Assembly: GCA_002441095.1 (NCBI GenBank)
Contig: DJVG01000043.1
Span: 2,254 to 66,253, forward strand
DNA from: Elusimicrobia bacterium UBA6262
Lineage (GTDB): Bacteria > CAYTYR01 > UBA6262
DNA: 64,000 bases
Reading direction: 5' to 3'
This document shows, in pieces, positions 1,805-62,073 of this stretch. Each line of letters starts with the position of its first letter. Positions within the stretch are counted from its first letter, which is position 1. The notes beneath the pieces were generated by a model, which saw only the letters and a program-made list of their open reading frames with translations, had not been told where the DNA came from and searched no databases. A program made the translations under genes and the position numbers.

Positions 1805-2188
1805 CTATAGTTCGTTCTTCTTGCTTAGTTCTTTGACCATGCCCAGCAGTACTTCCGGTGAAAAAGGCTTCATGATCACATAATCCACCCCTAAAGACCG
1901 GCATTGTTCTTCCAGTTCCCGGACATTAGACGCAGTGAAAATAATGATCGGGATCTTGGCAAATTCAGGATCTGCTTTTAATTGTTTGGCTACTTCATAC
2001 CCATTGAGATCAGGCATGACAATATCCAACAGGATCAGGTCAGGCTTTTCCTCTTTTACCTTTTCCAGGGCCTGTACACCGCCATAAGCAGTGGCTACGC
2101 TGAAACCATTGGCTTCCAGCCTGGATTTTAAGAGGATCCGCACATGAGGTTCGTCATCCACTACCAGTATTTTTTTATTAGTGCTCAT
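1805..2188 (-). CDS. single-domain response regulator (CheY-like receiver)
   Basis: MSTNKKILVVDDEPHVR...DLILLDIVMP...FTAS...KP receiver signature; 4-nt ATGA overlap with upstream kinase gene. Confidence 0.85.
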   Translation of the reverse strand: MSTNKKILVVDDEPHVRILLKSRLEANGFSVATAYGGVQALEKVKEEKPDLILLDIVMPDLNGYEVAKQLKADPEFAKIPIIIFTASNVRELEEQCRSLGVDYVIMKPFSPEVLLGMVKELSKKNEL

Positions 2189-5100
2189 TTTGCCTCCTCT
2201 AATTTGCTCTTGGCCAACCGCAGCAGTTCTTCAGACTCATGGCCATCTTCAGGATATATGGCTATCGCCTGCGACAGGCTATCAACGGGAACTTGTTTTT
2301 TCCGGCAGTTCTCGATAATGCGCTGGCACAGGGAATTAGCTCCTGGCCGGGCAGACCTGACCAGGACGACAAGCAAGGTGCGCTCTTCAAACCGCACTAC
2401 CATGTCGTCTGCTCTCCTGACACTATATCTGGCTGCTGCTTCGACCCCATCAAGTATAGACATGGCCTGCAGAGCACCCTGGACCGGCTTGATCAAGATC
2501 AAAGCCAGGGACTCATACTCTTTCTTAGCTTTATCCAGCTGGTCCCTTAAGAGCTCATGGAAAACCGCATCAGCTGATAATTTCGGCAGGGTAAAAATAA
2601 ATTTACTGCCTTTTTCCAGTTCGCTCTCCACGCGGATAGTGCCGCCATGCATTTCCACCAGGCTCTTGCTGATCGACAAGCCCAGGCCTGTCCCGCGATA
2701 GCCCGGCCCTGCTGTCCGGTTGATCTGTTCGAACCGGTCAAATATTTTATGGAAGTTTTCAGCAGCGATCCCCCGGCCATGGTCCTCCACTGTTATTTCG
2801 ATCTCCGGGCCTTTGTCTACCAGGTAAACTTCCACTTTCCCTTTATCCTGCGAGAACTTGATAGCATTATCTATTAAATTACTGAGCACCTGTTTTATCC
2901 GGTCCTCATCAAGAAACAAAGAAAAGCCAGGCAGGCCCAGATGCATTTCCAAGGTGATCTGACGCTCCCGGCCCCTTATTTCCAGGTTGTTAACCACCGA
3001 CCTGATCACCGGTACTATATCATGTTCTGTCTTATTCAAAGTAACCTTGCCTGCCTCGATCTTGGAGACATCCAGCAGATCATTAATGATCCGGGTCAGG
3101 CGGTCAATTTCTTCCGTGGCAATATGCAGGAATTCTTTTTGGTCCGGGTTGAGCTCGCCTTTGATGCCTTCCAGGACCTGGGAAATAGATTCACGGATAC
3201 AGGTGATCGGGGTCCTCAATTCATGCGAAACAGTGGAAATAAATTCGCTTTTCAACCGTGCCGCTTCTTTCTCCCTGGTCACATCCCGGAAAGCCAGGGC
3301 CAATCCGATCATCTCATTCTCTGCCTTAAAAACAGGGGCAATATCAAAATGCAGGATCCGGCTGGGATTCTCACCTAATTTCACTTCTTTTTTGACAACC
3401 TTGCTTTTTTCCCATGATTCCACCAGGCTCAAGTCCAGCCCTACGCTAGTCAACATTTCCAGCACTTTGGCGTAATCTTTCTCATCCTTCTGGTATCCCA
3501 GCAAGTGCAGAGCCATATCATTGCTTACTGCGACCTGGCCGTTTTTATCCAGCATGATCACGCCTTCGTTCAACGATTCAACAAGAACCGAGATCTTTTC
3601 ATTCCACTCCTGGAGTTTGCCCTGCATGACTTGCATTTCCTGCCTGTTTTCCTCAAAATCTTCCAGCAAAGAAAGCATTACTTCCCTTGATTCTTTGGCT
3701 TCCTGCAACGCCTGCTCCAGATTCCTGGTTCTTTCCCGGATCTTATCTTCCAGAGTTACGCTGTAATGCTCCAGTGCATTCTTGGAATTATTAAGTTCTT
3801 CGATCATCTGCAGGTTTTCCCGCAAATCAGTCCCCACCAGGATCATGCCGTCAATTTCATTTTTCTTGTCCCGGACCATAGTGCAGGAAAGGCTGACCGG
3901 GATAGGGACCAGGGTCTTGGTGCGGTATTTCACGACCACATTACGGGTCGGATGCTTCTTAGTTTTAGCTATCAGATCAGCCAGTATCTCAACGCTATCC
4001 CCTTCCTGGAATAAAATTTCTACACTCTTATTATGGAGCTCTTCCCAGGTATAGCCAAGCAAGTTTAGCGTCACCTTGTTTACTTCCCGGATGGTCCCGT
4101 CATTATGCAATACCACTAATGAATCGCTCATACTGTTAATAATGTTCTCAAAAAATAGTTTCCGGTCAGTGATCTCCTGGTACGCAGTTTTCAGATCCGT
4201 GATCATCCAGTTAAAAGACTGGGCCAACTGTTCTATCTCATCACCAGTTTTGATATTAGACCGGACATTCAAGTCTCCGGTAGATACTTTTTGCATCGCT
4301 TTCTGCAATGAGGAAACGGAATCCACGATCCGCCGGCTGAAAAATATATTAAAAGGTATCAGGATCAGTAATAAGGCCGCAGCCAGGGCAAACTGCCGGG
4401 CGAACATCTGCCTGATCGGGGCAAAAGCTACTGCCGTTTCCTGGGATAGACAAACTATCCATTGCAGATCATTGTCCTGCAATATCTCATTTTTAACTAC
4501 GGCAACGGTAATGATTGCGCTATGATTATTAATATCCGAACCAATGATCCAGGGATTTTTACCTGAGACGATCAGCTCTTTTATATCCTGGCTGAATTTC
4601 AGGCCGGGCAGCTGCCTATGCAAATCCCTGATCAGGATATTGCCATCCTGGTCAGTCAAGACGGCAGTGCTCCCGGGGATATTGTTGAGCATTTCCATTT
4701 CTTCTAATTCATTCTTTATATTATACACTCCCTTGAGCACCCCGATAACATTATCAGCGGGCCCCACAATAGGAATGCAAAGCGGGATGGACCAGGCCTG
4801 GCTTGATTCATCAAATTCAATTTGACCTATATAAGGTTTCTCTTTGGTATAACTAATAGCTTTTTGCCACCATGTTTCATCAGCCTGGTAAAAGTCTGTT
4901 GTTTTTCCAGAGGCAGCCACCAATCCACCAAAGCGGTCGCTGATAAAAACCTCACCGATTTTTCCCATAATAGTATCATATCTTCGCAATTGGGCGGCGG
5001 CAGGAATATCTGTGTATTTTTTAACTAGCGGGGATTCCTGAGTAGCTGCCCGCCATTGCTGGTCCATGGTATCGAAATAGGCCTGCCGATCCGGGATAGT

Positions 5101-10219: not shown

Positions 10220-12412
10220 TCACATCACAAAAAGCATCTCGCGATATTTCGGCAGGTCCCAATGCTCATCCGCGATCACGCCTTCCAGGTCATCGCTGTG
10301 TTTACGGATATGTTCCATCAGCGGTTTCAATTCATTAAAATATACAGCAGCTTTCTCTTTGCCTTCCAGGCTCCTGGCTTTTTCCAGTAATTTCACCAAA
10401 ATCTGGGTATTTTTCCGTAAATAATAGATCTTATTGGTGACATCAGCCAGGTGCCCTTTCAGATCCTCAAAAGCTTTCTCATCAATATTCAAGCCAATGG
10501 TATTTTTAAGGCTACTGATCTTTTCCAGGTTATTAGCCAATTGTCCCTGGTATTCCAGTCCCGCCGGGACAACTATCGAGTCAACCATTTCCCGCAGGGT
10601 GCTGGCTTCAATAGTGAGCACAATGTTATACATTTCAACCCAGATATTATATCGCGCCATTAATTCATCATGGCTTAATACGCCTTGTTTCTCGAAAATG
10701 GCAATATTTCCTTTTTCCGTGAAAGCAGCCAGGGCCTCAGCGGTAGAAGCGACATTGGCCAAACCGCGTTCTTTGGCCTCATAGAGCCATTCTGAAGAAT
10801 AATTATTACCTTCAAACCTGATATTTTTCGTTTCTTTAGCCAGCTGGGCAATTACTGCCACCACGGCAGATTCAAGATCCTTATTTCTCAGTTCTTTAGT
10901 TATCTCCTCAGCCACATAATTCAGCGAATCGGCAATGATCGTATTGATCACTGTCAATGGCCAGCTGATATTCTGCGATGAACCTACCGCCCGGAACTCA
11001 AACTTACTGCCGGTAAAGGCAAAGGGCGAAGTCCGGTTACGGTCAGTAGCGTCCTTATTCACTTTAGGCAGGCGTCCCACACCAAGGTCGATAATATCTT
11101 TTTTAGTGACTTTATGCGCAGTCCCGGCAACAATCGTGTCCAGCACCTTGGTCAGTTGTTCTCCCAGGAACACCGAAACAATCGCCGGCGGGGCCTCATT
11201 AGCTCCCAAGCGGTGTTCATTGCCGGCTGAGGCAATACTGGCCCGCAAAAGATCCGCATGCTTATGAACCGCCCGTAAAACTGCTACCAGCACAGCCAGG
11301 AATTGCAGGTTATCTTCCGGCGTCTGTCCGGGATTAAGCAGGTTATTTCCCTGGTCATCAGCCATGGACCAGTTCACATGCTTGCCACTGCCATTAATTC
11401 CGGCAAAAGGTTTCTCATGCAGCAGGCAAACCAGGTTATGGCGCAAAGCTACTTTTTTCATGATTTCCATCAGTAGCTGGTTATGATCAGCAGCAATATT
11501 GGATTCTTCAAAAATAGGAGCAAATTCAAACTGGTGCGGCGCTACTTCATTATGGCGGGTAGTGACGGGAATACCCATCTTAAAGGCTTCTACGGAAACT
11601 TCTTCCATATAATTCAGGACCCGCTCTTTGATCGAGCCAAAATACTGGTCCTCCAGCTGCTGCCCTTTCGGCGAAGAGGCCCCGATCAGCGTGCGTCCGG
11701 TCAGCATCAGGTCCTGCCGCAATTTGTAATAGTTATTATCGATCAGGAAATATTCCTGCTCCGGGCCGCAGGTAGAAACTACCTTGCTAATGTCCCGGCG
11801 GCTGAATAATTTAAGCAGTTTTTTCGCCGCTTTACTGAGCGCTTCATCAGAACGAAGCAAGGGCAGCTTTTTATCTAAAGCATACCCATGGTAGGAGACG
11901 AAAATGCTGGGAATACACAGTGTTTTCCCTAACCGGGTCTCGCTGATAAAAGCCGGGCTGGAAGGATCCCAGGCAGTATAGCCGCGCGCCTCGAATGTGC
12001 TCCTGATACCGCCGCTGGGGAAAGAACTGGCATCTGGCTCACCCAGGATCAGTTTGGATCCGGAGAACTTTTCCACGACCTTGCCGGCACTATGCAGGGA
12101 TATAAAGCTGTCATGTTTTTCGGCGGTCAGTCCGGTCATAGGCTGGAACCAGTGGGCATAATATATTGCTCCTTTTTCCACGGCCCAGTCTTTCATAGCC
12201 CCGGCAATTTCATCAGCCTCTTTCATACTGATGGTACTGCCCCCGGCTAACCAGCGCTTGAAAGAAATAAAGGTTTTTTTACCGATCCGTTTCTGCATTT
12301 CGCTGATACTGAAAGTATTAGAACCAAAGTACCCGGAAACTTTTTTTGGTTTTTCAATTTTTGTTAAAGGAACACTCTCGATCTTGTCCACCACTTTTTG
12401 CCTAACGCACAT
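10220..12412 (-). CDS. glnN: glutamine synthetase type III (GlnN)
   Basis: 730 aa (GSIII size); N-terminal SGYFGSNTF...YAHWFQPMTGLTAEKHDSF and central NGSGKHVNWS, C-terminal regions characteristic of Bacteroides-type GSIII. Confidence 0.85.
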   Translation of the reverse strand: MCVRQKVVDKIESVPLTKIEKPKKVSGYFGSNTFSISEMQKRIGKKTFISFKRWLAGGSTISMKEADEIAGAMKDWAVEKGAIYYAHWFQPMTGLTAEKHDSFISLHSAGKVVEKFSGSKLILGEPDASSFPSGGIRSTFEARGYTAWDPSSPAFISETRLGKTLCIPSIFVSYHGYALDKKLPLLRSDEALSKAAKKLLKLFSRRDISKVVSTCGPEQEYFLIDNNYYKLRQDLMLTGRTLIGASSPKGQQLEDQYFGSIKERVLNYMEEVSVEAFKMGIPVTTRHNEVAPHQFEFAPIFEESNIAADHNQLLMEIMKKVALRHNLVCLLHEKPFAGINGSGKHVNWSMADDQGNNLLNPGQTPEDNLQFLAVLVAVLRAVHKHADLLRASIASAGNEHRLGANEAPPAIVSVFLGEQLTKVLDTIVAGTAHKVTKKDIIDLGVGRLPKVNKDATDRNRTSPFAFTGSKFEFRAVGSSQNISWPLTVINTIIADSLNYVAEEITKELRNKDLESAVVAVIAQLAKETKNIRFEGNNYSSEWLYEAKERGLANVASTAEALAAFTEKGNIAIFEKQGVLSHDELMARYNIWVEMYNIVLTIEASTLREMVDSIVVPAGLEYQGQLANNLEKISSLKNTIGLNIDEKAFEDLKGHLADVTNKIYYLRKNTQILVKLLEKARSLEGKEKAAVYFNELKPLMEHIRKHSDDLEGVIADEHWDLPKYREMLFVM

Positions 12413-12590
12413 GGTTTTACCCCCATTGGTCAGAGTATCAGGATATCAGGATATCAGGCTATCAGGTTTTCCTGATAATCTGATTACCTGATACCCTGTT
12501 GTCCTGATCCATAATCTCCTGATATTCTCACCCTGATTACCTGATATTCTGATATCCTTATTTATTTTTCTATTATACTTTATTGCCTGG
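12413..12590. repeat. ATCAGG x4 / CCTGAT x8 opposed-repeat element (long imperfect palindrome) in glnN upstream region
   Basis: gtatcaggatatcaggatatcaggctatcagg...cctgataatctgattacctgataccctgttgtcctgatccataatctcctgatattctcaccctgattacctgatattctgatatcc. Confidence 0.7.
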
Positions 12591-15149
12591 TTAAATGCAA
12601 GCGTTTCCCTTTTTCTTATAGTTAACCATCTTCAGGATTTCAAACCAGAGAATACTAAAGATCCCAGCCGCCGTACAGATCACAAAATCAATGAAGTGAA
12701 GCTGCGAAAAGTGAAACAACCTTTTCAAGAACGGTACATTCAGGCTCAAGCCCAGGAATAACAAGGCTCCTGTTAAAACCAGCCAGGAAGCCGTATTAGG
12801 AGCGCGCAACGTGGTTATGATCGACTTTGACCAGGAACGGTTCGTGAAGATCAGGGCTATATTGGCTACGATCAACGTGGTAAAGGTCATGGCCCTGGCT
12901 TCCATATCACCCAATCCCCGGAATAAAGCTATGGCATAAACCGCTAAGACCACGACTAAAACAGTTATACCTTGCAGCAGGCTGATACCAATAGTACGCC
13001 GGTTGAACAGTGACTGTTTAGGATCCCGCGGCGGGCGGTTCATGATCTGTGGTTCCTCTTTTTCCGCTTCAAAGACTATCGAACACGCCGGGTCTATAAT
13101 TAGCTCCAGGAAAACAATATGTACCGGTAGTAAGACCAGGGGCCATTTAAGTAAAACCGGTATCAGGGACAGGCCGGCGATCGGCACATGAATAGCAAAA
13201 ATATAAGCCATGGCTTTTTTAATATTATCAAAGATCCTTCTGCCCAGCCTGACCGCTGAGACAATAGAAGAAAAATCATCATCCAGTAATACCAGTCCCG
13301 CAGCCTCCCTGGCGACATCGGTCCCGCGTCCGCCCATGGCAATACCAATATGGGCCGCTTTCAGCGCCGTAGCGTCATTAACCCCGTCACCGGTCATGGC
13401 GACGATCTCGCCATTGGCTTTCAACGCATTGACCAGTAATAATTTTTGTTCTGGCATGACCCGGGCAAAGATACTGGTTTTCTTGATCCGTTCACATAGT
13501 TCCGCAACACTTAATTTTTCCAGTTCCGGTCCGGTGATATAATCATCAGCTTTATGCAAACCGATCTGGCGGGCAATATTCATAGCTGTACCAGGATAAT
13601 CACCAGTGATCATTACGACGCGGATACCGGCAGTATAACATTCCTTGATGGATTCAGCCACAGTCGGGCGCACCGGATCCGTCAGTCCAACCAGCCCGAC
13701 AAATTCAAAAAAGAAATCATGTTGTTGTCCTGGTAATGACTCTTCCTGGAAATGGGCTTTGGCCACGCCAATGATCCTCAATCCCTCGTCAGCCATGGTA
13801 TTTATCTGCCCACTTAATTCAGCCGCCGCTGTCTGATCCATATGGCACAGGTCAATGACCGCTTCTGGCGAACCTTTGGCCGCAATAATATAGTCTTTCC
13901 CGTCAGGAGATTTCCAGACATGGGACATCGCCAGCAATTCCTGTGACAAGGGATATTCCTGGACCAGGGTCCAATTATAATGCAAATGTTCTGTATTGGA
14001 AAGAGTTTTGGTCCCTAGATCCCTGATGGCTTTTTCCATCGGGTCAAAAGGATCATGCTGGCTGGCCAGGATGGCAAACTCTACGATCTCATGGAATTTT
14101 TCCGGTAGCCTTCCCTTATACTCCGGATCAACGGCAAAGTACTTGCTTTGGGCACACACTTTTCCGACCGTCATCCGGTTCATGGTCAGGGTCCCGGTTT
14201 TGTCCACACAGAGCACCGTGGCTGCTCCCAAAGTTTCAATGACCGGTACCCTCCGGGTTAAAACATTTTTTTGGGAAATACGCCAGGCTCCTAACGCCAG
14301 GAAAATGGTCAGGACCACCGGGAATTCTTCCGGCAGCATGGCCATCGCCAGGGTAATGCCGGCCAGAAACCCGTGCAGGAAACTGCCGGTAGTCAAACCA
14401 TAGGCGACAATAACGATCGAACATAGTACTATACCGCTAATAGCTAAATTTTTAACTACCCTGCCGGTTTCTTTCTGCAAGGCTGTTTCTTCTTCTTCTA
14501 TGGTTTGCAGGGATTTACCGATCTTGCCGATCTCTGTATTCAGGCCTGTACCCTTTACCCGGGCGATCCCTTGACCGCGCACGACCAGTGTTGCTGAATA
14601 AACAAACGGCGTATCTTCGCCACCGGGACGGGACATTTCCTCATCAGATTTTTCGGCAGTTTTCCTAACCGGCACTGACTCACCGGTTAACAAGGATTCA
14701 TCCACAGAAAGAGCGCTGGACCAAAGCACCATGGCATCAGCCGGTATACGGTCACCTTCAGCCAGGATCAGGATATCTTCACACACCACTTCCCGGCCGG
14801 CAATACGTAATTGTTTACCATCCCTGATCACCAGTGCCCTGGGGCTGGTGATATCACGCAAAGCCTCCAAAGCCCGCTCAGTTTTGCGTTCCTGGTACAG
14901 GGTAATACCCATCACCACAAAAACAAAACCCAGCAGCATTAATGCTTCCTGTTTATCACCCAATAACCAGTAAATTACCCCGCAGGCCACCAGCAGCAGG
15001 AACATCGGTTCGCTCAATATTTCAAAAGCGATCTTCCAGACACTGCGCCGACGACTGGACGGGAGTTCATTATATCCTTCTGCCCCCAATCTGGCCTGCG
15101 CTTCTTTTTGGGACAGTCCGGTAATATTTTTTATTTCACTGTAATCCAT
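12591..15149 (-). CDS. cation-transporting P-type ATPase (P2-type, Ca2+/Mg2+-like)
   Basis: 852 aa; DKTGTLT phosphorylation motif, TGES actuator-like motif, MTGDGVNDA hinge, 8-10 TM helices. Confidence 0.85.
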   Translation of the reverse strand: MDYSEIKNITGLSQKEAQARLGAEGYNELPSSRRRSVWKIAFEILSEPMFLLLVACGVIYWLLGDKQEALMLLGFVFVVMGITLYQERKTERALEALRDITSPRALVIRDGKQLRIAGREVVCEDILILAEGDRIPADAMVLWSSALSVDESLLTGESVPVRKTAEKSDEEMSRPGGEDTPFVYSATLVVRGQGIARVKGTGLNTEIGKIGKSLQTIEEEETALQKETGRVVKNLAISGIVLCSIVIVAYGLTTGSFLHGFLAGITLAMAMLPEEFPVVLTIFLALGAWRISQKNVLTRRVPVIETLGAATVLCVDKTGTLTMNRMTVGKVCAQSKYFAVDPEYKGRLPEKFHEIVEFAILASQHDPFDPMEKAIRDLGTKTLSNTEHLHYNWTLVQEYPLSQELLAMSHVWKSPDGKDYIIAAKGSPEAVIDLCHMDQTAAAELSGQINTMADEGLRIIGVAKAHFQEESLPGQQHDFFFEFVGLVGLTDPVRPTVAESIKECYTAGIRVVMITGDYPGTAMNIARQIGLHKADDYITGPELEKLSVAELCERIKKTSIFARVMPEQKLLLVNALKANGEIVAMTGDGVNDATALKAAHIGIAMGGRGTDVAREAAGLVLLDDDFSSIVSAVRLGRRIFDNIKKAMAYIFAIHVPIAGLSLIPVLLKWPLVLLPVHIVFLELIIDPACSIVFEAEKEEPQIMNRPPRDPKQSLFNRRTIGISLLQGITVLVVVLAVYAIALFRGLGDMEARAMTFTTLIVANIALIFTNRSWSKSIITTLRAPNTASWLVLTGALLFLGLSLNVPFLKRLFHFSQLHFIDFVICTAAGIFSILWFEILKMVNYKKKGNACI

Positions 15150-15172: not shown

Positions 15173-16000
15173 CTACTTCCTGATCTGGCGGTAAAGGAAA
15201 GAACTTATAAACAATACCAGGCTCACCAGGACAATGGTAGCCCCGCTGGGCCAGTCCAGGAAAAAGGAAAGCATAATACCTGTCCAGACTGAAACCACCG
15301 CCACTACTACCGCCACCAGCATCGTCATCCTGAATCCTTTGGCAACCTGCAGTGCAGTGACAGTAGGCAGTATTAGCAAAGCCGATACCAGCATTATGCC
15401 CACTACTTTCATGGCTAGTACTACGGTAATAGCAGTCAAAACCACCAGCATTTTATTTACGGCCTTGGTATTTATGCCTTCAGCCTGGGCGCATTCTTCA
15501 TCAAAAGTGACTGCCACCAGGTCATAATAAAAAAAAGCCACCAGAATAATAACTATCGTCGCCAAGCCGATGGACATCCATACCTCAGTCTTAGTGATAG
15601 CCAGGATATTGCCAAACAGGTAACTGAACAAGTCAATATTAAAGCCCTTGGTTATGCTCACCAGCAGGATCCCGATAGCAATACCCAGCGCTGAAACAAT
15701 GCCGATAGCCGCATCTCCGTAAAGGTACTGCGCTTCAGTCAGTTTCATGATCCCTAGAGAACTAAGGACCACCAAAGGCAAAGCTACATACACTGGAGTG
15801 ACATTAAAGAACAAACCTAAGGCTAAAGCGCCAAAAGTCACATGTGACAGGCCATCCCCGATCAGGGACAAGCGGCGCAGCACCAGGAACACACCCAGAA
15901 TAGCGCACAAAGCCGCAATGAATGAACCGGCAATGACTGCCCGCTGCATAAAGCCGTAACTTAGAAATTTAAATAAATCCATTGGGGAACCTTTTTTCAA
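15173..16000 (-). CDS. metal (Zn/Mn) ABC transporter permease, ABC-3 / ZnuB family
   Basis: 275 aa polytopic membrane protein, N-terminal FLSYGFMQRAVIAGSFIAAL... typical of ZnuB/MntB. Confidence 0.75.
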   Translation of the reverse strand: MKKGSPMDLFKFLSYGFMQRAVIAGSFIAALCAILGVFLVLRRLSLIGDGLSHVTFGALALGLFFNVTPVYVALPLVVLSSLGIMKLTEAQYLYGDAAIGIVSALGIAIGILLVSITKGFNIDLFSYLFGNILAITKTEVWMSIGLATIVIILVAFFYYDLVAVTFDEECAQAEGINTKAVNKMLVVLTAITVVLAMKVVGIMLVSALLILPTVTALQVAKGFRMTMLVAVVVAVVSVWTGIMLSFFLDWPSGATIVLVSLVLFISSFLYRQIRK

Positions 16001-16133
16001 AATAAGTTATAAACTACGGGTATCAGGTAATCAGGGGACCAGGGAGTGGATATCAGGAAATCAGGACAGCAGGTCTTACCTGATACTCTGATAACCTGAT
16101 TCCCTCTACCTGATAACCTGTTATCCTGATGTC
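16001..16133. repeat. ATCAGG / CCTGAT opposed-repeat element (same family as 12413-12590)
   Basis: ggtatcaggtaatcaggggaccagggagtggatatcaggaaatcaggacagcagg...cctgatactctgataacctgattccctctacctgataacctgttatcctgatgtcc; lies between znuC-like stop and znuB-like start. Confidence 0.7.
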
Positions 16134-16901
16134 CTAACTTTTCGGCGCATCATGCCGATGGCAGATAAGATGCTGGGCATATTCACCGAAGTACTCGGTA
16201 ATGTCCGGGGAAGCGCAAAAATTATCAAAACCGCCAAAAAAGATGATCTTTTTATCCAGGTACAGCATTTTCGCCGCGTATTTCCCGATCGTGCCAATAT
16301 CATGCGTGATCAATAAAATAGTTACTTTTCTTTTTTCATTGAATTCTTTCAGCACCGCGTAAAATCTTTCCCGGGTTTCCGGGTCAAGCGCAGTAGTCGG
16401 CTCATCAAGGATCAATAATTCCGGTTCACCGGCTAAGGCCCTGGCGGCCATGGCGCGCTGCTGTTGCCCGCCGGAGAGCTCGCTGATAAGCTTATGCTTA
16501 ATGTCCCTGATCTCCAGCAGGGCCAGTGCCTTATCGATCGCGATTTCATCGGTGCGGGATATCTGCTTGGGGAATTTTTTGCCGGCTAAAAGGCCGAATG
16601 ATACTACTTCCCTGACAGTAGCCGGGAACTGCGGATTAAAGGAAGTTAATTTTTGCGGTAAATACCCTATCCTCTGCCACTCCTTGAACTGGCTTTGCCT
16701 CGTACCCAAAATACTTATTTTTCCCTGGGTCGGCAGGAGCAGGCCCAGGATAGTCCGGACTAGGGTGGTTTTGCCAGAGCCATTGGGGCCAACAATACCG
16801 ATATAATCCCCGGCTTGCGCGGTAAAAGAGATCCCGCTCAAAACTTCATTCGCCTGGTATTTTACCGTGACCTGGTCTACGGCTAAAGAAATTACTGACA
16901 T
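16134..16901 (-). CDS. metal ABC transporter ATP-binding protein (ZnuC-like)
   Basis: Walker A GPNGSGKTT, signature LSGGQQQR, Walker B LLILDEPT. Confidence 0.85.
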   Translation of the reverse strand: MSVISLAVDQVTVKYQANEVLSGISFTAQAGDYIGIVGPNGSGKTTLVRTILGLLLPTQGKISILGTRQSQFKEWQRIGYLPQKLTSFNPQFPATVREVVSFGLLAGKKFPKQISRTDEIAIDKALALLEIRDIKHKLISELSGGQQQRAMAARALAGEPELLILDEPTTALDPETRERFYAVLKEFNEKRKVTILLITHDIGTIGKYAAKMLYLDKKIIFFGGFDNFCASPDITEYFGEYAQHLICHRHDAPKS

Positions 16902-22044: not shown

Positions 22045-22310
22045 TGGCTCAGTAAGAACGAAGAGCAGTCAGAACGAAAAGCAGTAGAAACGAGGAGCAG
22101 TCAGAACGAAAAGCAGTAAAACATAATTACAGTCATTACGAGGAACAGTTGCCAGTAAGTAAAAAAACAGTAAGCGCTAATCTTTATTAGTTACTATCAA
22201 ATGACTCTCGCTGCTTTTGTTTTTCGTTTTGACTGCCTTTCATTCTTACTGCTCTTTGCTTTGACTGCTCTTCGTCTTTACTGCTTCTTGCTTTGACTTA
22301 TTAACTCCGC
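22045..22310. repeat. tandem CAGTCAGAACGAAAAGCAGTA units (22045-22140) and inverted copies TACTGCTTTTCGTTTTGACTG (22200-22310): long imperfect inverted repeat
   Basis: gagcagtcagaacgaaaagcagtagaaacgaggagcagtcagaacgaaaagcagtaaaac ... ctgcttttgtttttcgttttgactgcc...tactgctctttgctttgactgctcttcgtctttactgcttcttgctttgac; related copy at ~20395-20430. Confidence 0.7.
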
Positions 22311-54910: not shown

Positions 54911-55001
54911 GCAAGCAAGTAAAAAGGGAATTAGTTTTTACCCGATATTCTGGTATCCTGATAACCTCTTCCTGATCTCCTGATTCCCTGATATCCTCAA
55001 T
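54911..55001. repeat. CCTGAT x5 repeat element (same family as 12413-12590, one arm only)
   Basis: atattctggtatcctgataacctcttcctgatctcctgattccctgatatcctc. Confidence 0.6.
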
Positions 55002-56447
55002 TTACATCTTTGGCAGGTTCGTCTTTCCCATCAGGTATTTATCTATATTATAAGCCGCGGTACGGCCTTCGGATATGGCCCAGACTATCAGGGACTGGCC
55101 CCGGTGCATGTCCCCGGCAGTAAAAATCTTCTGAACTGAGGTTTGGTGGTTCTCCCCGGCCTTGACATTGCCCCTCTGGTCCAGTTCTACTTTCAGCTTT
55201 TCCAACAATCCTTTTGGTTCCGGGTGCAGGAACCCAAGCGCTAACAGTACCAGGTCTGCCTGGATATTGAACTCACTGCCGGCTATGTCCTTAGGTGATA
55301 CGCAACCCTTGGCATCTTTACCTGACCAATCGATACGGACGCATTCCAAATGCTTGACCTGTCCTTTTTCCCCGCTGAATTTCCTGGTCTGGATGGCCCA
55401 CTCCCTTTCCCCGCCTTCCTCATGGCTGGAAGAAGTCTTCAACAGCGGCGGATATTTGGGCCAGGGGAATTGCCCGGTCCGGCATTCCGGCGCTGGCGGC
55501 AGCAATTCGATCTGCACTACACAGCTGGCTCCCTGGCGATGGGCAGTGCCCACACAGTCTGCACCAGTATCACCGCCGCCGATCACTACCACTTTTTTGC
55601 CTTTAGTATCGATCAATTGGCTGGCTGGTATTTTTTCCCCGCTCACTTTTTTATTGGATTGGATCAGGTAATCCATGGCAAAATAAATTCCTGCCAATTC
55701 CCGGCCCGCGATTTTAAAGTCACGCGGCTGACGTGAGCCACCCGCGAGGCAGACAGCGTCAAATTCCTTCAACAGTTTAGCCACAGGATAATCAATTCCC
55801 GCATTTACATTGGTGCGGAATTCGATCCCTTCTTTTTCATAGATCTCCAGCCGGCGGTCCAGGATACTCTTTTCCAGCTTGAAGTCAGGAATACCGTAAC
55901 GCAAAATACCGCCTGGTTTGGCGTCTTTTTCAAAAACCGTCACCTTATGCCCGGCTTTGTTCAACTGGTCAGCCGCAGCCAGCCCGGCTGGTCCGGACCC
56001 GATCACTGCTACTTTCTTGCCGGTACGTTTCAGCGGCGGTTCAGGTTTGATCAGTCCCATTTTGAAAGCATATTCAATAATAGCCAGCTCATTCTCGCGG
56101 ATCGTGACCGGGTCATCATTAATACCCAGCACGCAGGCAAACTCACACAGAGCCGGGCACAAACGACCGGTAATTTCCGGCAGGTTGTTGCAGGCGTGCA
56201 GGAGTTCAATGGCCCGTTCCCAATGGGAGCGGTAAACCAGGTCGTTCCAGTCAGGAATATAATTACCGATCGGACAACCCCAATGGCAGAACGGCGTCCC
56301 GCAATCCATGCACCGCGAAGCCTGCTCCTGCGTTACTTCTTCTTTCCGCGGTACAACCACGTCACGGTAGTCTTTGGTCCGTACGCACACCGGCCGGTAT
56401 TTTGTTTTTAGCCGTTTTACTTTTAAGAAACCCTTTGGATCACCCAT
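55002..56447 (-). CDS. gltD: glutamate synthase (NADPH) small subunit
   Basis: VAVIGSGPAGLAAADQL dinucleotide-binding motif, N-terminal Cys cluster, 481 aa. Confidence 0.85.
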   Translation of the reverse strand: MGDPKGFLKVKRLKTKYRPVCVRTKDYRDVVVPRKEEVTQEQASRCMDCGTPFCHWGCPIGNYIPDWNDLVYRSHWERAIELLHACNNLPEITGRLCPALCEFACVLGINDDPVTIRENELAIIEYAFKMGLIKPEPPLKRTGKKVAVIGSGPAGLAAADQLNKAGHKVTVFEKDAKPGGILRYGIPDFKLEKSILDRRLEIYEKEGIEFRTNVNAGIDYPVAKLLKEFDAVCLAGGSRQPRDFKIAGRELAGIYFAMDYLIQSNKKVSGEKIPASQLIDTKGKKVVVIGGGDTGADCVGTAHRQGASCVVQIELLPPAPECRTGQFPWPKYPPLLKTSSSHEEGGEREWAIQTRKFSGEKGQVKHLECVRIDWSGKDAKGCVSPKDIAGSEFNIQADLVLLALGFLHPEPKGLLEKLKVELDQRGNVKAGENHQTSVQKIFTAGDMHRGQSLIVWAISEGRTAAYNIDKYLMGKTNLPKM

Positions 56448-56501
56448 TCTTATACCTCGTTTTTCGGTTTACGGTTACGATGCCCGTTTACAAACTTCGG
56501 T
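56448..56501. repeat. tandem ~27-bp CGGTTTACGG-TTACGATGCCCGTTTA units flanking the four-helix-bundle gene
   Basis: cggtttacggttacgatgcccgtttacaaacttcggtttacgggtgcggtttcgatgcccgtttaa. Confidence 0.6.
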
Positions 56502-56912
56502 TTACGGGTGCGGTTTCGATGCCCGTTTAAAACTGTTCCAAACATTTCCGAGTTTATATAACTGTCGCGCTGATTTATCATATGAATCTATCAATTTATT
56601 ACATAATAAAACATCTGTTTGTTCTGGATAAATATCCTTAGTCTGATTCAAGCTGACAATTATTTCATTACACTCAGCCATTGCGTCATCAATATACTTT
56701 TGGAAGCCAGCTTTTTGATGTCGTTTCGCGTACCCCTCAGCTATTAATCTTGGCACTGACTTACATGCTCTACTTAGCTGATCTTTCAAATCATATCTTT
56801 CAACATCTGGTAATTTTGGTAAGACCTCTTTCATTACTACAAGCATCGCTTTATAAGTATTGTTATATACTTCCAAATCCGTAAAACTAACAATCTTCTT
56901 TTTATTTTCCAA
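56502..56912 (-). CDS. four-helix-bundle protein (family frequently encoded in 23S rRNA intervening sequences)
   Basis: 136 aa; LEVYNNTYKAML...RACKSVPRLIAEGYAKR...ECNEIIVSL pattern of the four-helix-bundle (TIGR02436-like) family. Confidence 0.65.
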   Translation of the reverse strand: MENKKKIVSFTDLEVYNNTYKAMLVVMKEVLPKLPDVERYDLKDQLSRACKSVPRLIAEGYAKRHQKAGFQKYIDDAMAECNEIIVSLNQTKDIYPEQTDVLLCNKLIDSYDKSARQLYKLGNVWNSFKRASKPHP

Positions 56913-57038
56913 TTCTTTTCCTTTCGCTCTCCGAAACCGTATATCGATTCCTAGCTTCTATTCGGGCCTCGTATCCGTTTACCGTATACCAAGCTTCTAT
57001 TCGGGCTTCGTTACCGTACACCGTATACCGAGCTTTTA
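56913..57038. repeat. tandem ~44-bp AGCTTCTATTCGGGCYTCGT-TCCGTTTACCGTATACC units flanking the four-helix-bundle gene
   Basis: agcttctattcgggcctcgtatccgtttaccgtataccaagcttctattcgggcttcgttaccgtacaccgtataccgagctt. Confidence 0.6.
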
Positions 57039-60000
57039 TTATCCGTCATAAGACTGTTCTAAGTCCAGCTTATCTGCTTTTTTCTTGGATTCCAGTATCT
57101 TCTTGTATTCCAGCGGCATGACCTTGATGAATTTCCCGCGCTGGCCCTCAAAATCAGCCAGTACTTTTTGCGCGTATTCACTGCCAGTGTATTTTTTGTG
57201 GTTTTCCAGCAGGTTTTTTATTATGCCCGCATCATCTTCATTAACAATATCCAATTCCACCATATCCTGGTTGCACCTGGCTGGGAAATTACCGTCTTCA
57301 TCAAGTATATAGGCTACGCCGCCGCTCATGCCAGCCGCGAAATTGCGCCCGGTACTGCCCAGGACCACGATCCTGCCACCGGTCATGTATTCACAACCAT
57401 GGTCGCCTACACCTTCCACTACCGCGTTTAATCCGGAATTCCTGATACAGAATCTTTCCCCAGCCCGGCCGCAAATATAAGCTTCCCCGGTGATGGCTCC
57501 GTAAAAAGTAGTATTTCCGATTATAATATTCTCTTCCGGCCGGTAATCTGATTTCCGGTCAGGATAAATTATTATCTTCCCGCCGGAGATGCCTTTACCG
57601 ACATAGTCATTAGCCAGTCCTTCCAGCTCGAAAGTCACGCCTCTGGCCAGCCACGCACCGAAACTCTGCCCAGCCATGCCCTTGAATTTAAAATTAATAG
57701 AATCTTCCGGCAAGCCAGCTTCGCCATATTTTTTACAAACTTCGCCGCTCAACATGGCGCCGGTCGTGCGATTGGTATTTTTGATTGTGAGCTCTACTTT
57801 GATCGGTTCCTTTTTTTCCAGCGCTGGTTTGGCCAGGACGATCAATTGCCGGTCCAGCACCTTATCTATATTATGGTTTTGTTTAATGATCTGGTGTGTT
57901 TCAATATTTATATTGGCCTTCGGCTGGTATAACATCCGGGAATAATCCAGACCTTTGGTTTTCCAGTCTAGCATATCCTTGTTCAGCTCCAGCAGGTCTG
58001 TCCGGCCGACCATATCTTCCAAGGTAGGAGTGCCTAATCCTGCCATGATCTCCCGCAGTTCTTCGGCTACTAAACGGAAATAATTCACCAGGTATTCTGG
58101 TTTACCGCGGAACCGTTTGCGCAACTCTTCATCCTGGGTGCAAACCCCGACCGAGCAATTATTCAAATGGCAATGCCTCAGCATCACGCAGCCTAATACA
58201 ACCAGGGCAGCAGTGCCGAACCCGAATTCTTCGGCTCCGAGCATTGCGGCTATGGCCAGGTCCCGTCCGGTGCGCATTTGTCCGTCAGCCTGCAGGCGGA
58301 CCCGGCTCCTCAGGTCATTGAGCACCAGGGTCTGGTGCGTTTCTGATAATCCCAGCTCCCAGGGCAGGCCGGCATGCTTGACCGAGCTCAACGGTGACGC
58401 TCCGGTGCCGCCATCCCCGCCGGAGATCAGGATCATGTCAGCATGGCCCTTGGCCACGCCCGCGGCTACGGTCCCTACGCCGATCTCTGATACCAGCTTG
58501 ACGCTGACGCGCGCTGTAGGATTAGTATTTTTCAGGTCGAAGATCAACTGGGCCAGGTCTTCGATAGAATAAATGTCATGATGCGGCGGCGGTGAGATCA
58601 GCGTTACGCCCGGAGTAGTGTAACGGGTTTTGGCGATCGTCACGCTTACCTTATGACCGGGTAACTGTCCGCCTTCACCTGGTTTCGCGCCTTGGGATAT
58701 CTTTATCTGCAATTCATCGGCATTGACCAGGTAATTGGTAGTTACACCGAAACGGCCGGATGCGACTTGTTTAATAGCGCTGCGCACCGAATCCCCGTTC
58801 GGTAATGGCGCGAACCTGGCTGGATCCTCTCCACCCTCTCCGGTATTGGACTTACCGCCTAAACGGTTCATGGCCATAGCCATGGTTTCATGAGTTTCCT
58901 TACTGATCGAGCCGAAGCTCATAGCTCCGGTCACAAAATGTTTGACCAGGTTTTCTATTGGTTCTACTTTATCCAAAGAAATCGGCTTGGCCTTTTTTAA
59001 TTTCAGCAAACTGCGCAAAGTGGTCGGATGTCCCGATTGGTCATTGATCAGACCGGCGAATTCTTTATACTTCCCGTAATCCCCGTTGCGCGTAGCATCC
59101 TGCAGAGCGGCAATGCTTTCAGGATTCCACAAATGGTATTCCCCGTCCCTTTTCCACTGGTATAACCCGCCGGTGATCAAATACGGGGTCTTGAATTCAT
59201 CGCGCAAAGGATAGGCCTGCTGATGGCGCAAAATGGTTTCCCGGGCCAGGATTTTCATATCCGCTCCGCCGATGCGGGAAACAGTGCCGGCAAAACATCT
59301 CTCGATCACGTCGTCAGCCAAACCAAGAGCTTCATAGATCTGGGCGCCGCGGTAGCTTTGCAAAGTGGAAATACCCATTTTCGAAAGCACTTTTTTAATG
59401 CCCTTGTTAATAGCTTTAATATAATTATCGACTGCCTTGTCCAGTCGGAGATGCACTTCCCCTTCCAGGATCAGGTGCTCGATAGCTTCATACGCCAGGT
59501 AAGGATTAACAACTCCCGCGCCAAAAGCCAGCAAGAGAGTGAAGTGATTCACTTCCCTGGGTTCCGCGCTTTCTACAATTATGGCGATCTGCGCGCGCAA
59601 TCCTTTTTTTACCAGGTATTGGTGGACTGCCCCGGTAGCCAGCAGGGCTGGCAACGCGGCTTGTTTCCGGCTGGTGCCCCGGTCGCTCAAAATAATAAAA
59701 GTAAACCCTTCGCTGATCGCTTCCCGCGCATCGGCGCAGATACGGTCGAGAGCTTTCAGGAATTCTTTTTCATCTTCTGCTTCGTTCCCATTGACCGGGA
59801 ACAGGATCGAGATCCGCTTGGCGCGGAATCCGGGCTCTTTAATAGAATGTATCCGGGTCAGCTCATCGTTAGTAATGACTGGCAGCGGTACCCTGAGCTT
59901 GCGGCAATTTTGCGGTACTTCTTCCATTAAATTCTTTCGCGGGCCCATAAAGCTTTCCAGGCTCATGACCAGTTCTTCCCGGATCGGGTCGATCGGCGGA

Positions 60001-61592
60001 TTGGTCACCTGGGCGAACAGCATACGGAAATAAGTATAAGGTAATTGCGGTTTTTTGCTTAATACCGCGTGCGGCGTGTCATTGCCCATGGAACCGACTG
60101 GTTCCTGGCCATTCTCCACCATCGGCTTGATAATAGTTTTCAGGTCTTCCCGGCTATAGCCGAACGCCTTCATATCAGTCAGTATATCTGTTGATCTTAA
60201 ATAAGCACTCTTGTCCAAAGGCATCATCACTGCTTCCGGCAAGCTGTCCAGTTCCAGCATATTATCTTTGATCCATTCGCCGTACGGGTTGCGGCTGGAC
60301 ATCTGCTCTTTCAATTCCCGGTCGTCGATGATCCTCCCCGCTTCGGTATCGATAAAGAACATCTTCCCTGGTTCAAGTCTTCCTGAATACAAAATATCCT
60401 GCGGCGGGATATCCAATACTCCCACTTCAGAGGCCATGACCACCAGGTCTTTCTTGGTCACCAGATACCGCGCCGGCCGCAAGCCATTGCGGTCCAGCAC
60501 CGCGCCGATCTGCCTGCCGTCGGTGAAAGCAATAGCTGCCGGTCCGTCCCAGGGCTCCATCAGGCAGGTATGGTACATGTAGAAATCTTTTAACTGCTGG
60601 TCCATCAGGTCATTGTGTTCCCAGACCGACGGGATCAGCATGGTCATAGAATGGGCTAAAGACCGGCCCGCCAAAACCATTAATTCGAAAACATTATCAA
60701 TAGACGCGGAATCACTGCCATCAGGTACGATAGTAGGCATGATCTTTTTCAGGTCCTCACCGAATAATTTGCTTTTCAGCAACCCTTCCTTGGCCCGCAT
60801 CCAGTTGATATTGCCCCGCAGGGTATTGATCTCGCCATTATGCGCCAGGAAACGGAACGGCTGCGCCAGGTCCCAGGCCGGGAAAGTATTTGTACTGTAG
60901 CGTGAATGCACCAGGCTGATCGCGCTGTGCAAAGCCGGATCTTTCAGGTCAACAAAATATTCTGCGACCTGTTCCGGCATCAGGAGACCTTTATAGGAAA
61001 AAGTCCGGTTGGACAAATTAGTAATATAGAAAAAAGATTTCTGTTGCAGGGGAGACTCACGGATAGCATTTTCAACCAGTTTGCGGATAATATAGAGTTT
61101 TCTTTCGAGATAAAGACTGTCTTGTCCGGCTTTAGCGCTGGCAGTGCCGACAAATACTTGTTCGATCATTGGCTCAGTTTCTCGGGCAGTCTTGCCAATG
61201 ACCGAGTTATCTACCGGTACCGGACGCCAGCCCAGTATTTCGCATTTTTCATTTTTGACGATCGCGGCGAATTTCTTTTTGCAGTATTCCCTCTCTTTAG
61301 CATCTGTTGGCAAAAACACCAGGCCAGTGCCATACTTCCCGGCAGCAGGCAAATTGAAGCCGGCTGTGCGGCAAACCTGGCTGAAAAACTCATGCGGTAT
61401 CTGGATCAATATGCCGGCTCCGTCACCGGTCTTGGGGTCAGATCCCGTAGCACCGCGGTGAGCCAGCCGGTTAAGAACTTCTAATCCTTGCCTGACTATT
61501 TCATTGGAGCGCTGGCCCTTGATATTACAGACAAAGCCAACTCCGCAGGAATCATGTTCATATCGCGGATCGTACAACCCTTGAGGTTTCAT
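57039..61592 (-). CDS. gltB: glutamate synthase large subunit
   Basis: 1517 aa; N-terminal ...EHDSCGVGFV amidotransferase Cys, FMN and 3Fe-4S regions. Confidence 0.9.
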   Translation of the reverse strand: MKPQGLYDPRYEHDSCGVGFVCNIKGQRSNEIVRQGLEVLNRLAHRGATGSDPKTGDGAGILIQIPHEFFSQVCRTAGFNLPAAGKYGTGLVFLPTDAKEREYCKKKFAAIVKNEKCEILGWRPVPVDNSVIGKTARETEPMIEQVFVGTASAKAGQDSLYLERKLYIIRKLVENAIRESPLQQKSFFYITNLSNRTFSYKGLLMPEQVAEYFVDLKDPALHSAISLVHSRYSTNTFPAWDLAQPFRFLAHNGEINTLRGNINWMRAKEGLLKSKLFGEDLKKIMPTIVPDGSDSASIDNVFELMVLAGRSLAHSMTMLIPSVWEHNDLMDQQLKDFYMYHTCLMEPWDGPAAIAFTDGRQIGAVLDRNGLRPARYLVTKKDLVVMASEVGVLDIPPQDILYSGRLEPGKMFFIDTEAGRIIDDRELKEQMSSRNPYGEWIKDNMLELDSLPEAVMMPLDKSAYLRSTDILTDMKAFGYSREDLKTIIKPMVENGQEPVGSMGNDTPHAVLSKKPQLPYTYFRMLFAQVTNPPIDPIREELVMSLESFMGPRKNLMEEVPQNCRKLRVPLPVITNDELTRIHSIKEPGFRAKRISILFPVNGNEAEDEKEFLKALDRICADAREAISEGFTFIILSDRGTSRKQAALPALLATGAVHQYLVKKGLRAQIAIIVESAEPREVNHFTLLLAFGAGVVNPYLAYEAIEHLILEGEVHLRLDKAVDNYIKAINKGIKKVLSKMGISTLQSYRGAQIYEALGLADDVIERCFAGTVSRIGGADMKILARETILRHQQAYPLRDEFKTPYLITGGLYQWKRDGEYHLWNPESIAALQDATRNGDYGKYKEFAGLINDQSGHPTTLRSLLKLKKAKPISLDKVEPIENLVKHFVTGAMSFGSISKETHETMAMAMNRLGGKSNTGEGGEDPARFAPLPNGDSVRSAIKQVASGRFGVTTNYLVNADELQIKISQGAKPGEGGQLPGHKVSVTIAKTRYTTPGVTLISPPPHHDIYSIEDLAQLIFDLKNTNPTARVSVKLVSEIGVGTVAAGVAKGHADMILISGGDGGTGASPLSSVKHAGLPWELGLSETHQTLVLNDLRSRVRLQADGQMRTGRDLAIAAMLGAEEFGFGTAALVVLGCVMLRHCHLNNCSVGVCTQDEELRKRFRGKPEYLVNYFRLVAEELREIMAGLGTPTLEDMVGRTDLLELNKDMLDWKTKGLDYSRMLYQPKANINIETHQIIKQNHNIDKVLDRQLIVLAKPALEKKEPIKVELTIKNTNRTTGAMLSGEVCKKYGEAGLPEDSINFKFKGMAGQSFGAWLARGVTFELEGLANDYVGKGISGGKIIIYPDRKSDYRPEENIIIGNTTFYGAITGEAYICGRAGERFCIRNSGLNAVVEGVGDHGCEYMTGGRIVVLGSTGRNFAAGMSGGVAYILDEDGNFPARCNQDMVELDIVNEDDAGIIKNLLENHKKYTGSEYAQKVLADFEGQRGKFIKVMPLEYKKILESKKKADKLDLEQSYDG

Positions 61593-61752
61593 TTACGTTA
61601 CCTCTTTTATCCAAGAACCGAGATTTGATTATGGAATTCGATAAAAATTCTCTTCATATTTTTTTCTAAAAAGATGCTTACATACCCGTGCGAGTATGCG
61701 CGCTTCTTTTTAGAAAAAAATATTTTGAGCTTTTTCATCTCGGTTCTCATAA
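61593..61752. promoter_or_regulatory. gltB upstream region with nested inverted repeats (GAACCGAGAT...ATCTCGGTTC outer; TTTCTAAAAAG...CTTTTTAGAAA inner)
   Basis: ccaagaaccgagatttg...tttttctaaaaagatgcttacatacccgtgcgagtatgcgcgcttctttttagaaaaaaata...ttcatctcggttctcat. Confidence 0.4.
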
Positions 61753-62073
61753 CTAATCTCGGCTCTCGGATTTCCATCTCGTGATGTCAATGCCCAGTTT
61801 CTTGATCTTGGTACGGAGAGTATTCCTATTTATACCTAATATCCTGGCAGTTTTCAACTGGTTTCCTGCGGTTTGTTCCAAAACAAAATCAATCAGCTGT
61901 TTTTCAACCTTGGCCATGACCGTCTTGTAGAGGATCCCGCTTTTTTCTTCTACCACACCATATCCTTCGGCCTTGAGCATCTGGCTGACTATTTTCTGGA
62001 TCTTTTTTTCGTTTTCCGCGATCAAGACAGTGATCATAGAACAATCCTTTTCCAGGCACAGCCTTTTGTGCAT
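61753..62073 (-). CDS. small Fis-type HTH (HTH_8) DNA-binding protein
   Basis: 106 aa; QLIDFVLEQTAGNQLKTARILGINRNTLRTKIKKLGI = NtrC/Fis C-terminal HTH. Confidence 0.6.
   Translation of the reverse strand: MHKRLCLEKDCSMITVLIAENEKKIQKIVSQMLKAEGYGVVEEKSGILYKTVMAKVEKQLIDFVLEQTAGNQLKTARILGINRNTLRTKIKKLGIDITRWKSESRD

Follow-up and report, generated by a model that had tools for sequence, protein, structure and literature searches.

The window analysed here, 64,000 nucleotides (nt) of contig DJVG01000043.1 from Elusimicrobia bacterium UBA6262, contains on its minus strand gltB and gltD, the genes for the large and small subunits of glutamate synthase. The two genes are separated by 591 nt, which hold a single intact open reading frame (ORF) of 136 amino acids (aa). 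What is this insert, and how did it come to stand between two subunit genes? A first-pass annotation had described it as a small selfish cassette with a four-helix-bundle gene that separates the subunit genes by about 590 bp, and the measured gap agrees with that figure. We consider it probable that the insert, about 570 bp in total, represents a mobile cassette without a promoter of its own, built like the ribosomal RNA (rRNA) intervening sequences, in which a four-helix-bundle gene is enclosed by inverted arms, and that this copy lies outside rRNA. The G+C content of the ORF is 34–36% compared with about 50% in the flanking genes, i.e. about 15 points lower.

The four-helix-bundle gene

The predicted protein matches PF05635 (23S_rRNA_IVP) with an E-value of 6e-15 and 55.7 bits (cut-off 33.8) and TIGR02436 (four helix bundle protein) with 46.1 bits (cut-off 24). 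Together with the domain calls, these matches confirm the four-helix-bundle ORF that had been recognized from the sequence alone. All 57 invariant columns of the family are retained (57/57). An AlphaFold2 monomer model, computed with 28 homologues, has a mean confidence (pLDDT) of 88.8 and places helices at residues 15–33, 36–62, 69–94 and 101–131. The closest PDB structure found with Foldseek is 2GSC_D (Xcc0516; TM-scores 0.66/0.77), followed by 2RLD (BT_0352). A phmmer search against the PDB sequences also returned 2GSC (E 8.5e-5). A more distant structural match is the Avd chain 8UB7_C from a diversity-generating retroelement complex (TM-scores 0.52/0.61). Hence, the modelled protein has the up-down four-helix-bundle fold of 2GSC and 2RLD. 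Relative to L003, a groundwater metagenome-assembled genome (MAG) labelled Elusimicrobia (L numbers denote the loci compared), the ratio of nonsynonymous to synonymous substitution rates (dN/dS) of the ORF is 0.085, which points clearly to purifying selection.

Neither PADLOC nor PHROGs gave a match for the protein; no homologue was found among the GenBank phages and none was confirmed in IMG/VR. A defence or phage origin was rejected on these grounds. A single match to the arm core in IMG/VR is a chance match in G+C-rich coding DNA. Plasmids carry only distant cyanobacterial and Azospirillum relatives (30–38% identity).

The TTG-started four-helix-bundle gene is uncalled in the public contigs. 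Instead, the public gene calls place a 43-aa ORF at 56450–56581 on the minus strand (L001 7574–7705; L002 165–296). This ORF is spurious: it results from reading the repeats of the downstream arm in a different frame, which gives NGHRNR twice. The exact 136-aa protein is absent from the public protein collection because the gene callers skipped the TTG start.

Inverted arms on both sides of the gene

The ORF is flanked by an upstream (U) and a downstream (D) arm, which are inverted copies of each other. On the upstream side, Tandem Repeats Finder reports a repeat at 56935–57040 with a period of 39 nt, 2.7 copies and 80% matches. The repeats noted on first reading are real, but the unit length of about 44 bp given for this side is slightly off. 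Units 1 and 2 of the U arm contain the family core ACGA(A/G)GCCCGAATAG. The third, degenerate unit is the counterpart of the single unit present in L003 and holds an AGGA just before the TTG start. The two downstream repeats, described earlier as about 27 bp long, are likewise genuine, with a less precise length: the units span 31 and 37 nt, their spacing is 33–39 nt, and they differ by a 6-nt indel. Both contain the family core AAACGGGCATCG(A/T)AACC...CCGTAAACCG. The last 6–8 codons of the ORF (KRASKPHP) are encoded by the first downstream unit.

A core common to both flanks does exist, although the form first proposed, (C/G)CGTTTAC(C/G)G, matches only once as written. The correct form, C(C/G)GTTTAC(C/G)G, occurs three times in the 64 kb, always at this locus, and none of 100 shuffled sequences reached three occurrences. 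Two separate tandem repeats, as originally described, are a less fitting picture than amplified inverted arms that pair across the ORF; the inverted relation of the two sides had been overlooked on first reading. In the minimum free energy (MFE) fold of the 606-nt region as RNA, the outer U and outer D units pair, as do the inner U and inner D units, and the ORF forms the loop. This fold has −150.3 kcal/mol (z = −4.4), and 0 of 20 shuffled sequences were as stable. The arms are imperfect inverted copies, in which short GGTAAC/GGTTAG-like units surround a conserved core. Read against the single unit per side in L003, they show an amplification in this lineage to about three units upstream and about two downstream.

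Insertion at the gltB–gltD junction

For comparison, 72 related metagenome gltBD loci with both genes in view were used, whose gltD is 64–79% identical. In 49 of the 72, gltB and gltD overlap by 8 nt (ATGGGTGA); gaps of 0–30 nt were found in 11 and gaps of 50–164 nt in 12. Neither a four-helix-bundle gene nor these arms occur in any of them (0/72), a result that favours the inserted cassette postulated initially. Outside this set, carriers of the insert at gltB|gltD are limited to the same organism (L001, L002) and to three related lineages (L003, L163/L164 and L165). The arm arrays vary at the shared site, and L163/L164 and L165 contain extra ORF-less arm pairs nested beside the ORF. Together, these comparisons show a cassette that, judged from the gene order of relatives, was inserted in sense orientation at the gltB–gltD junction in an ancestor of a small clade.

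The element and its site differ in their divergence. Between the window and L003 the ORF has a nucleotide identity of 90% (third positions 79%; dN 0.041, dS 0.48), compared with 72% for gltB (third positions 49%; dN 0.17, dS about 2) and 71% for gltD (third positions 45%; dN 0.16, dS saturated). At the shared site, the divergence of the element is thus about four times lower than that of its flanks. At its ends, identity drops from 85–95% to 57–70%, and the same was seen in 8 of 9 other pairs that share an insertion site. Since dN and dS are lowered together, a younger age is indicated rather than synonymous constraint, and the element looks younger than its insertion site. This low divergence may reflect the acquisition of the element more than once at one site, replacement of the resident sequence through gene conversion with incoming copies, or another process.

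A subfamily spread across phyla

Homologous proteins form 2,746 clusters at 90% identity. Of these, the 120 best are all 66–93% identical to the query, and those with names are mostly labelled Omnitrophota. In a 50%-identity library, 20 representatives were found at E 1e-30 and 666 at 1e-3, as for a tight subfamily. When one genome per species was scanned, 158 places were confirmed. Those with the 80 best matches (L003–L082; 60–91% identity) belong to Omnitrophota, many Patescibacteria of the candidate phyla radiation (CPR), Desulfobacteraceae and Planctomycetota (including Scalindua), and further to Bacteroidota, Ignavibacteriaceae, Gammaproteobacteria, Nitrospirales, Cloacimonadota and others. 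Proteins that are 60–93% identical are thus distributed over many phyla. No rRNA motif was found near any of the 80 loci.

In most of the 80 loci the order arm–ORF–arm recurs with a conserved core (GGTAACGAAGCCCGTATCG / CGAAACGGGCATCGTAACC). Ahead of the ORF the pattern is GGTAACGGTTAGGGTAACGAAGCCCGTATCGGTTAA..GGTAACG, and after it ACGTTACC..ACGAAACGGGCATCGTAACC..TTACCG. A U-arm profile built from 12 loci of other phyla recovers this order in most loci. In the window, nhmmer matches of this profile are limited to the two sides of our ORF (57027–57002 and, on the opposite strand, 56465–56489). The flanking repeats are therefore not unique low-complexity sequence; diverged copies of the arms flank close homologues in dozens of unrelated loci and phyla, in line with the selfish character initially ascribed to the insert.

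In most loci the U and D flanks are complementary over 40–110 nt at about 70–75%. An anchored alignment of 44 elements yields a core stem of 20 pairs, of which 88.9% are paired compared with 84.1% in shuffles (0/500 reach the observed value). Eleven pairs have changed on both sides, and slid controls gave 25–41%. Three positions of the core stem are conserved non-pairs, mostly A opposite A.

Several genomes hold more than one copy. In L034, a Patescibacteria single-cell genome, two copies (1400–2080 and 2794–3474) share the sharp boundaries TGGTTACGGTTAGGAAGCCCG ... CATCGTCACCATAACCCTAACCGA in unrelated flanks, and one miniature is present besides. The 3' 200 nt of the ORF and the downstream arm are 100% identical between these copies, whereas the 5' half is about 85% identical, which suggests recent gene conversion. 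A single MAG contains both L004 and L027, whose ORFs share 92% identity. Between L004 and L005, which stem from different MAGs, the ORFs share 94% identity although the flanks are unrelated. Two copies each are also found in L020, L069 and L082; the 64-kb window holds one. Copies of this kind show that the cassette is mobile in other genomes.

Miniatures of about 100–130 nt, consisting of arm, short loop and arm without an ORF, occur elsewhere in the same contigs. They keep the sequences that abut start and stop of the gene (GTAACGTAA...AGACGAT.ACGTAACC), as expected for internal deletions. At L027 (4860–5620) and L005, an arm pair without ORF has been inserted in front of the gene in one copy, whose downstream arm is interrupted by about 100 nt of unrelated, G+C-rich inserted sequence. 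These elements appear to insert into or beside one another. An integron cassette with attC sites was rejected on anatomy: the arms flank the ORF on both sides and are not both downstream.

Orientation relative to host transcription

In the window the ORF lies on the same strand as gltB and gltD. This is the common situation in the subfamily: the ORF is on the strand of the upstream gene in 73 of 82 cases and on the strand of both neighbours in 58 of 84. Many sites are intra-operon junctions, e.g. hisH|hisF in three Omnitrophota. The median distances are 88 nt from the upstream stop to the ORF start and 112 nt from the ORF end to the next start, so that the arms nearly fill the spacer. In the cassette region of the window no promoter-like or terminator-like signal stands out. 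The orientation bias, the short spacers and the lack of such signals fit a promoterless cassette that relies on read-through.

Two asymmetries bear on the strand. Mismatches in the stems are strand-asymmetric, with 147 A opposite A compared with 63 T opposite T. In 8 of 10 miniatures we read the core asymmetry as that of the sense type, which lends weak support to a strand-specific constraint.

Comparison with intervening sequences and other known elements

Intervening sequences of rRNA lie in 23S (or 16S) rRNA genes, classically at helix 25 or 45 of 23S rRNA, and are excised by RNase III without religation. A genuine example in the 23S rRNA gene is provided by locus L167 on plasmid AZO_p2 of Azospirillum lipoferum. 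It encodes a homologue, 31.5% identical and in sense orientation, within the 23S rRNA gene (Rfam LSU_rRNA_bacteria at 304–3363). The ORF (1501–1863) is placed about 1.15 kb into the gene, near the classical helix-45 site, and lies between 36-nt inverted arms of GGACAGA/GGACGGA units. The link to intervening sequences that the first-pass annotation had drawn from the protein family is thereby borne out at the level of architecture. Outside rRNA, homologues with comparable arms were found on a Calothrix plasmid (GTTAGCT units), on a Nostoc punctiforme plasmid (L169; GTCAGGA heptamers, in a co-directional run of genes) and as a second copy in L063 (29% identical; GCTAGTT units). Copies inside and outside rRNA thus share one design, and each protein subfamily has its own unit sequence.

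The intervening sequence of Coxiella has terminal inverted repeats with a 28-bp stem and tandem GACAGAT heptamers before the start of S23p; it is excised by RNase III in vitro, and the ends have been mapped (PMC4990558). ORFs of the 23S_rRNA_IVP family have also been reported in rRNA insertions of CPR bacteria (PMC11270868). The intervening sequences of Coxiella burnetii, Leptospira and L167 share with our cassette the ORF family and its sense orientation relative to the host transcript. They likewise have complementary arms, a long stem that encloses the ORF, short tandem units, a size of about 0.4–0.6 kb and a sporadic distribution that suggests horizontal spread. The defining feature of an intervening sequence that the cassette lacks is a location in rRNA, its host site being the mRNA operon junction gltB|gltD. 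It further differs in that the arm sequence is specific to the subfamily and conserved across phyla, and that ORF-less miniatures exist. The Coxiella S23p ORF is reported to be decaying and probably untranslated (PMC4990558), whereas the ORF described here is under clear purifying selection, as judged from its substitution pattern. Excision by RNase III, demonstrated for Coxiella, is presumed for our element.

Correia elements are flanked by a TA duplication. These intergenic inverted-repeat elements of Neisseria (CREE/NEMIS) are co-transcribed with their neighbours, and RNase III binds or cleaves the mRNA hairpins and alters the expression of adjacent genes (PMC2649163). The cassette resembles them in its small size, inverted repeats and intergenic location. 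Unlike the Correia elements, which are about 100–155 bp long, non-coding and confined to Neisseria, it contains a conserved protein gene, occurs in many phyla and shows no duplication. With MITEs (miniature inverted-repeat transposable elements) and repetitive extragenic palindromes or their mosaics (REP/BIME) it shares short palindromes that fill intergenic spacers, namely the miniatures and the hairpins at gltB|gltD in relatives. However, the full-length form encodes a non-enzymatic four-helix protein and not a transposase, and the arms are arrays of 6–8-nt units.

Avd, in the form of a pentamer, binds nucleic acid and a reverse transcriptase. Like our protein, to which it is homologous with 11% identity in the structural alignment, it forms a four-helix bundle, and it illustrates that a protein of this fold is able to act on the structured RNA of its own element. 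In contrast to Avd systems, no reverse transcriptase was found here among the genes called over about 17.7 kb.

Proposed mechanism and alternative explanations

We propose that the cassette is transcribed by read-through within the gltBD mRNA. In this transcript the two arms would form a long stem with interruptions, and the ORF would be looped out. A double-strand-specific RNase, presumably RNase III as for intervening sequences and Correia elements, would cut this stem. The cut would separate the gltB and gltD messages and release the mRNA of the four-helix-bundle protein. Translation of gltD would then start from its own GAGG (56458–56455) and would not depend on coupling to gltB. Since the ORF is under purifying selection, the protein is presumably made, and it would probably act in trans on the arms of its own family. 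Such an action is suggested by the different arm units of the subfamilies and by the ORF-less miniatures, which keep only arms.

Several observations weigh against this proposal. In the window there is neither a second copy of the gene nor, in the remaining 63 kb, another copy of the arms, and a phage or plasmid carrier of the cassette was not found. No target-site duplication is visible at the boundaries of the two L034 copies or of L004, L027, L021 and L006, which are known to within a few nt. A transposase is not encoded in the cassette, and no candidate is linked to it in any locus looked at. In our copy the core has drifted from GTATCG to GAATAG; the stem is interrupted and three core positions are conserved non-pairs. 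Cleavage by RNase III is therefore not assured. The TTG start and the degenerate third U unit may indicate a decaying copy. A sense-strand RNA stem is not favoured by the wobble count, which has 94 G.U and 79 A.C and thus no asymmetry, and some A/T positions of the core vary independently on the two arms. The complementarity of the arms could equally be kept because one protein recognizes both DNA ends. The two wobble counts, compared in order to detect such an RNA stem, do not discriminate between models at the RNA and at the DNA level.

This leads to the strongest alternative, a DNA transposon-like element, which we regard as possible but doubtful. Here, the arms would be terminal inverted repeats, acting as double-stranded DNA or as single-strand hairpins, for an enzyme encoded elsewhere. 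The four-helix-bundle gene would be cargo or an accessory factor, and the RNA stem a by-product. Inverted repeats are indeed present at the termini, copies have common sharp boundaries, the internal-deletion miniatures resemble MITEs, and the two ends co-vary as if bound by one protein. The missing excess of G.U over A.C and the independently varying A/T positions also agree with a function of the arms as DNA. However, the lack of both a target-site duplication and a linked transposase candidate counts against a transposon too. The sense bias in 73 of 82 cases is unexpected for a plain terminal-inverted-repeat transposon, the excess of A opposite A over T opposite T is specific to one strand, and genuine intervening sequences built in this way undergo processing at the RNA level (PMC4990558).

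It is improbable that the insert is a domesticated host gene, i.e. a functional part of gltBD that is inherited vertically in this clade, for instance as a regulator, or as a signal for mRNA processing, by which the ratio of the subunits is adjusted. The cassette does occupy this very site in four related lineages, its ORF intact and subject to purifying selection, and its tail provides the GAGG ahead of gltD. Yet the 72 relatives lack the cassette, and the same cassette occurs in other phyla at unrelated junctions such as hisH–hisF. Moreover, it is far less diverged than the surrounding operon, and its G+C content is well below that of the flanking genes.

An orphan Avd gene of a diversity-generating retroelement, or a remnant of one, is very improbable. 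The homology of PF05635 proteins to Avd is known (PMC10053308) and the model aligns with the 8UB7 chain, but no reverse transcriptase is present among the genes called over about 17.7 kb (window about 46.4–64 kb, L001), on which ground a remnant was rejected; the arm–ORF–arm layout is unlike that of such a retroelement (no search aimed at template and variable repeats was made), and the nearest PDB relatives, 2GSC and 2RLD, are free-standing S23p proteins.

Wider significance

That PF05635 genes occur in rRNA intervening sequences and scattered elsewhere in genomes is already known. In the literature searched (full text, with many subscription papers outside reach) we found no description of intervening-sequence-type cassettes outside rRNA and no account of a uniform cross-phylum arm–ORF–arm subfamily with a conserved arm core. 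The sense location at operon junctions, the ORF-less derivatives and ages younger than the sites are not described there either. Where rRNA intervening sequences and their conserved S23p ORF come from, how they move and what purpose they serve has been debated since the early 1990s, and studied almost only within rRNA. As this locus and its family show, ordinary operon junctions of many phyla are colonized by the same design, with a very uniform protein and conserved arms, and the family constitutes a large comparative data set. It bears on the question whether Avd-like proteins outside diversity-generating retroelements act on the nucleic acid of their own element. For the host, a coupled gltB/gltD overlap has become a structured spacer, which should change the stoichiometry or the stability of the subunit messages.

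With considerable reservation we suggest that every PF05635 "intervening sequence" gene is a member of a single, ancient class of mobile cassettes, which combine an Avd-like protein with cognate inverted arrays of 6–8-nt units. If so, the protein would recognize its own arms and drive their spread without an encoded nuclease or transposase, for example by hairpin targeting or through an RNA intermediate. The intervening sequences of 23S rRNA would then be copies that chanced to land in rRNA. The ORF-less hairpins at junctions, such as those with ATCAGG units in the window and those at gltB|gltD in relatives, would be non-autonomous derivatives.

Features of the locus

Table 1. Host genes and parts of the cassette in the window, in the direction of transcription.
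Feature	Position	Strand	Basis
gltB, glutamate synthase large subunit, 1517 aa, upstream host gene	57039–61592	−	Pfam GATase_2, Glu_syn_central, Glu_synthase, GXGXG
Spacer TAAAAGCTC, 9 nt, gltB stop to first arm unit	57030–57038	−	read from sequence
Upstream (U) arm array, three 39-nt units	56913–57029	−	Tandem Repeats Finder, repeat search, nhmmer, comparison with L003
U units 1, 2 and 3 (third degenerate)	57029–56991, 56990–56952, 56951–56913	−	by eye
Four-helix-bundle gene, 136 aa, TTG start, loop of long stem	56502–56912	−	PF05635, TIGR02436
Downstream (D) arm array, inner and outer unit	56463–56532	−	repeat search (direct and inverted pair), nhmmer, fold
D units, inner and outer (inverted partners of U units)	56532–56496, 56493–56463	−	
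Tail AAACGAGGTATAAGA, 15 nt, just 3' of stem	56448–56462	−	read from sequence
gltD, glutamate synthase small subunit, 481 aa, downstream host gene	55002–56447	−	Pfam Fer4_20, Pyr_redox_2

Both host proteins have the termini common to their relatives, ...LEQSYDG* at the C-terminus of GltB and MGDPKGF at the N-terminus of GltD. Within the 9-nt spacer, the left end of the element may already be represented by AAGCTCGG. AAGCTCGG / AAACTCGG likewise follows the gltB stop in L003, L163 and L165, and in L165 it adjoins the right end of a preceding ORF-less hairpin. At the other end, the Shine-Dalgarno-like GAGG of gltD lies inside the 15-nt tail. This GAGG/ACGAGGT motif may derive from the element or from the host. 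ACGAGGT stands between the D arm and the ATG of the next gene also in L003, L013, L017, L018 and L163–L165, yet the empty-site relative L086 has GAGGT ahead of gltD as well. Rfam gave nothing above chance at the locus and no match at gathering score in the whole window.

Other hairpins in the window and in relatives

Among relatives, 12 loci have enlarged gltB|gltD spacers, and most of these spacers consist of ORF-less hairpins with various unit sequences. They measure 86–164 nt in L092, L098, L107, L113, L125, L130, L138, L139 and L143. Examples of units are GGTTACG in L138 and TTTCGTCG in L113 and L139, the latter in opposite orientations. Such elements appear to settle by preference at the gltB|gltD junction or, more generally, at operon junctions of these bacteria.

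Two ORF-less hairpins in the window (12425–12570 and 16012–16140) consist of inverted arrays of the octamer NNATCAGG. They fill the spacers between co-directional minus-strand genes (10220–12412|12591–15149 and 15173–16000|16134–16901) and have a folding energy of −54 kcal/mol (z = −7.5 and −5.1). For the pattern ATCAGGNNATCAGG, 20 occurrences were counted in the window, compared with 0.3 expected. Since the Nostoc punctiforme arms (L169) consist of GTCAGGA heptamers, these hairpins may be miniatures of another cassette subfamily. A one-armed array of ATCAGG octamers is located just past the gltD stop (54971–54992; Tandem Repeats Finder 54944–54997, period 8, 7 copies).

A further inverted repeat at 22050–22283 has 66-nt arms, 79% complementary and 102 nt apart, with no ORF between them. 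In each arm a 16-nt unit (CAGTCAGAACGAAAAG / its complement) stands about four times in tandem. Finally, a near-perfect, A/T-rich palindrome at 61640–61739 (49-nt arms, 2 nt apart, 78% complementary) is placed between an HTH_8 gene (61753–62073) and the start of gltB, where it may serve as a regulatory site or a terminator.

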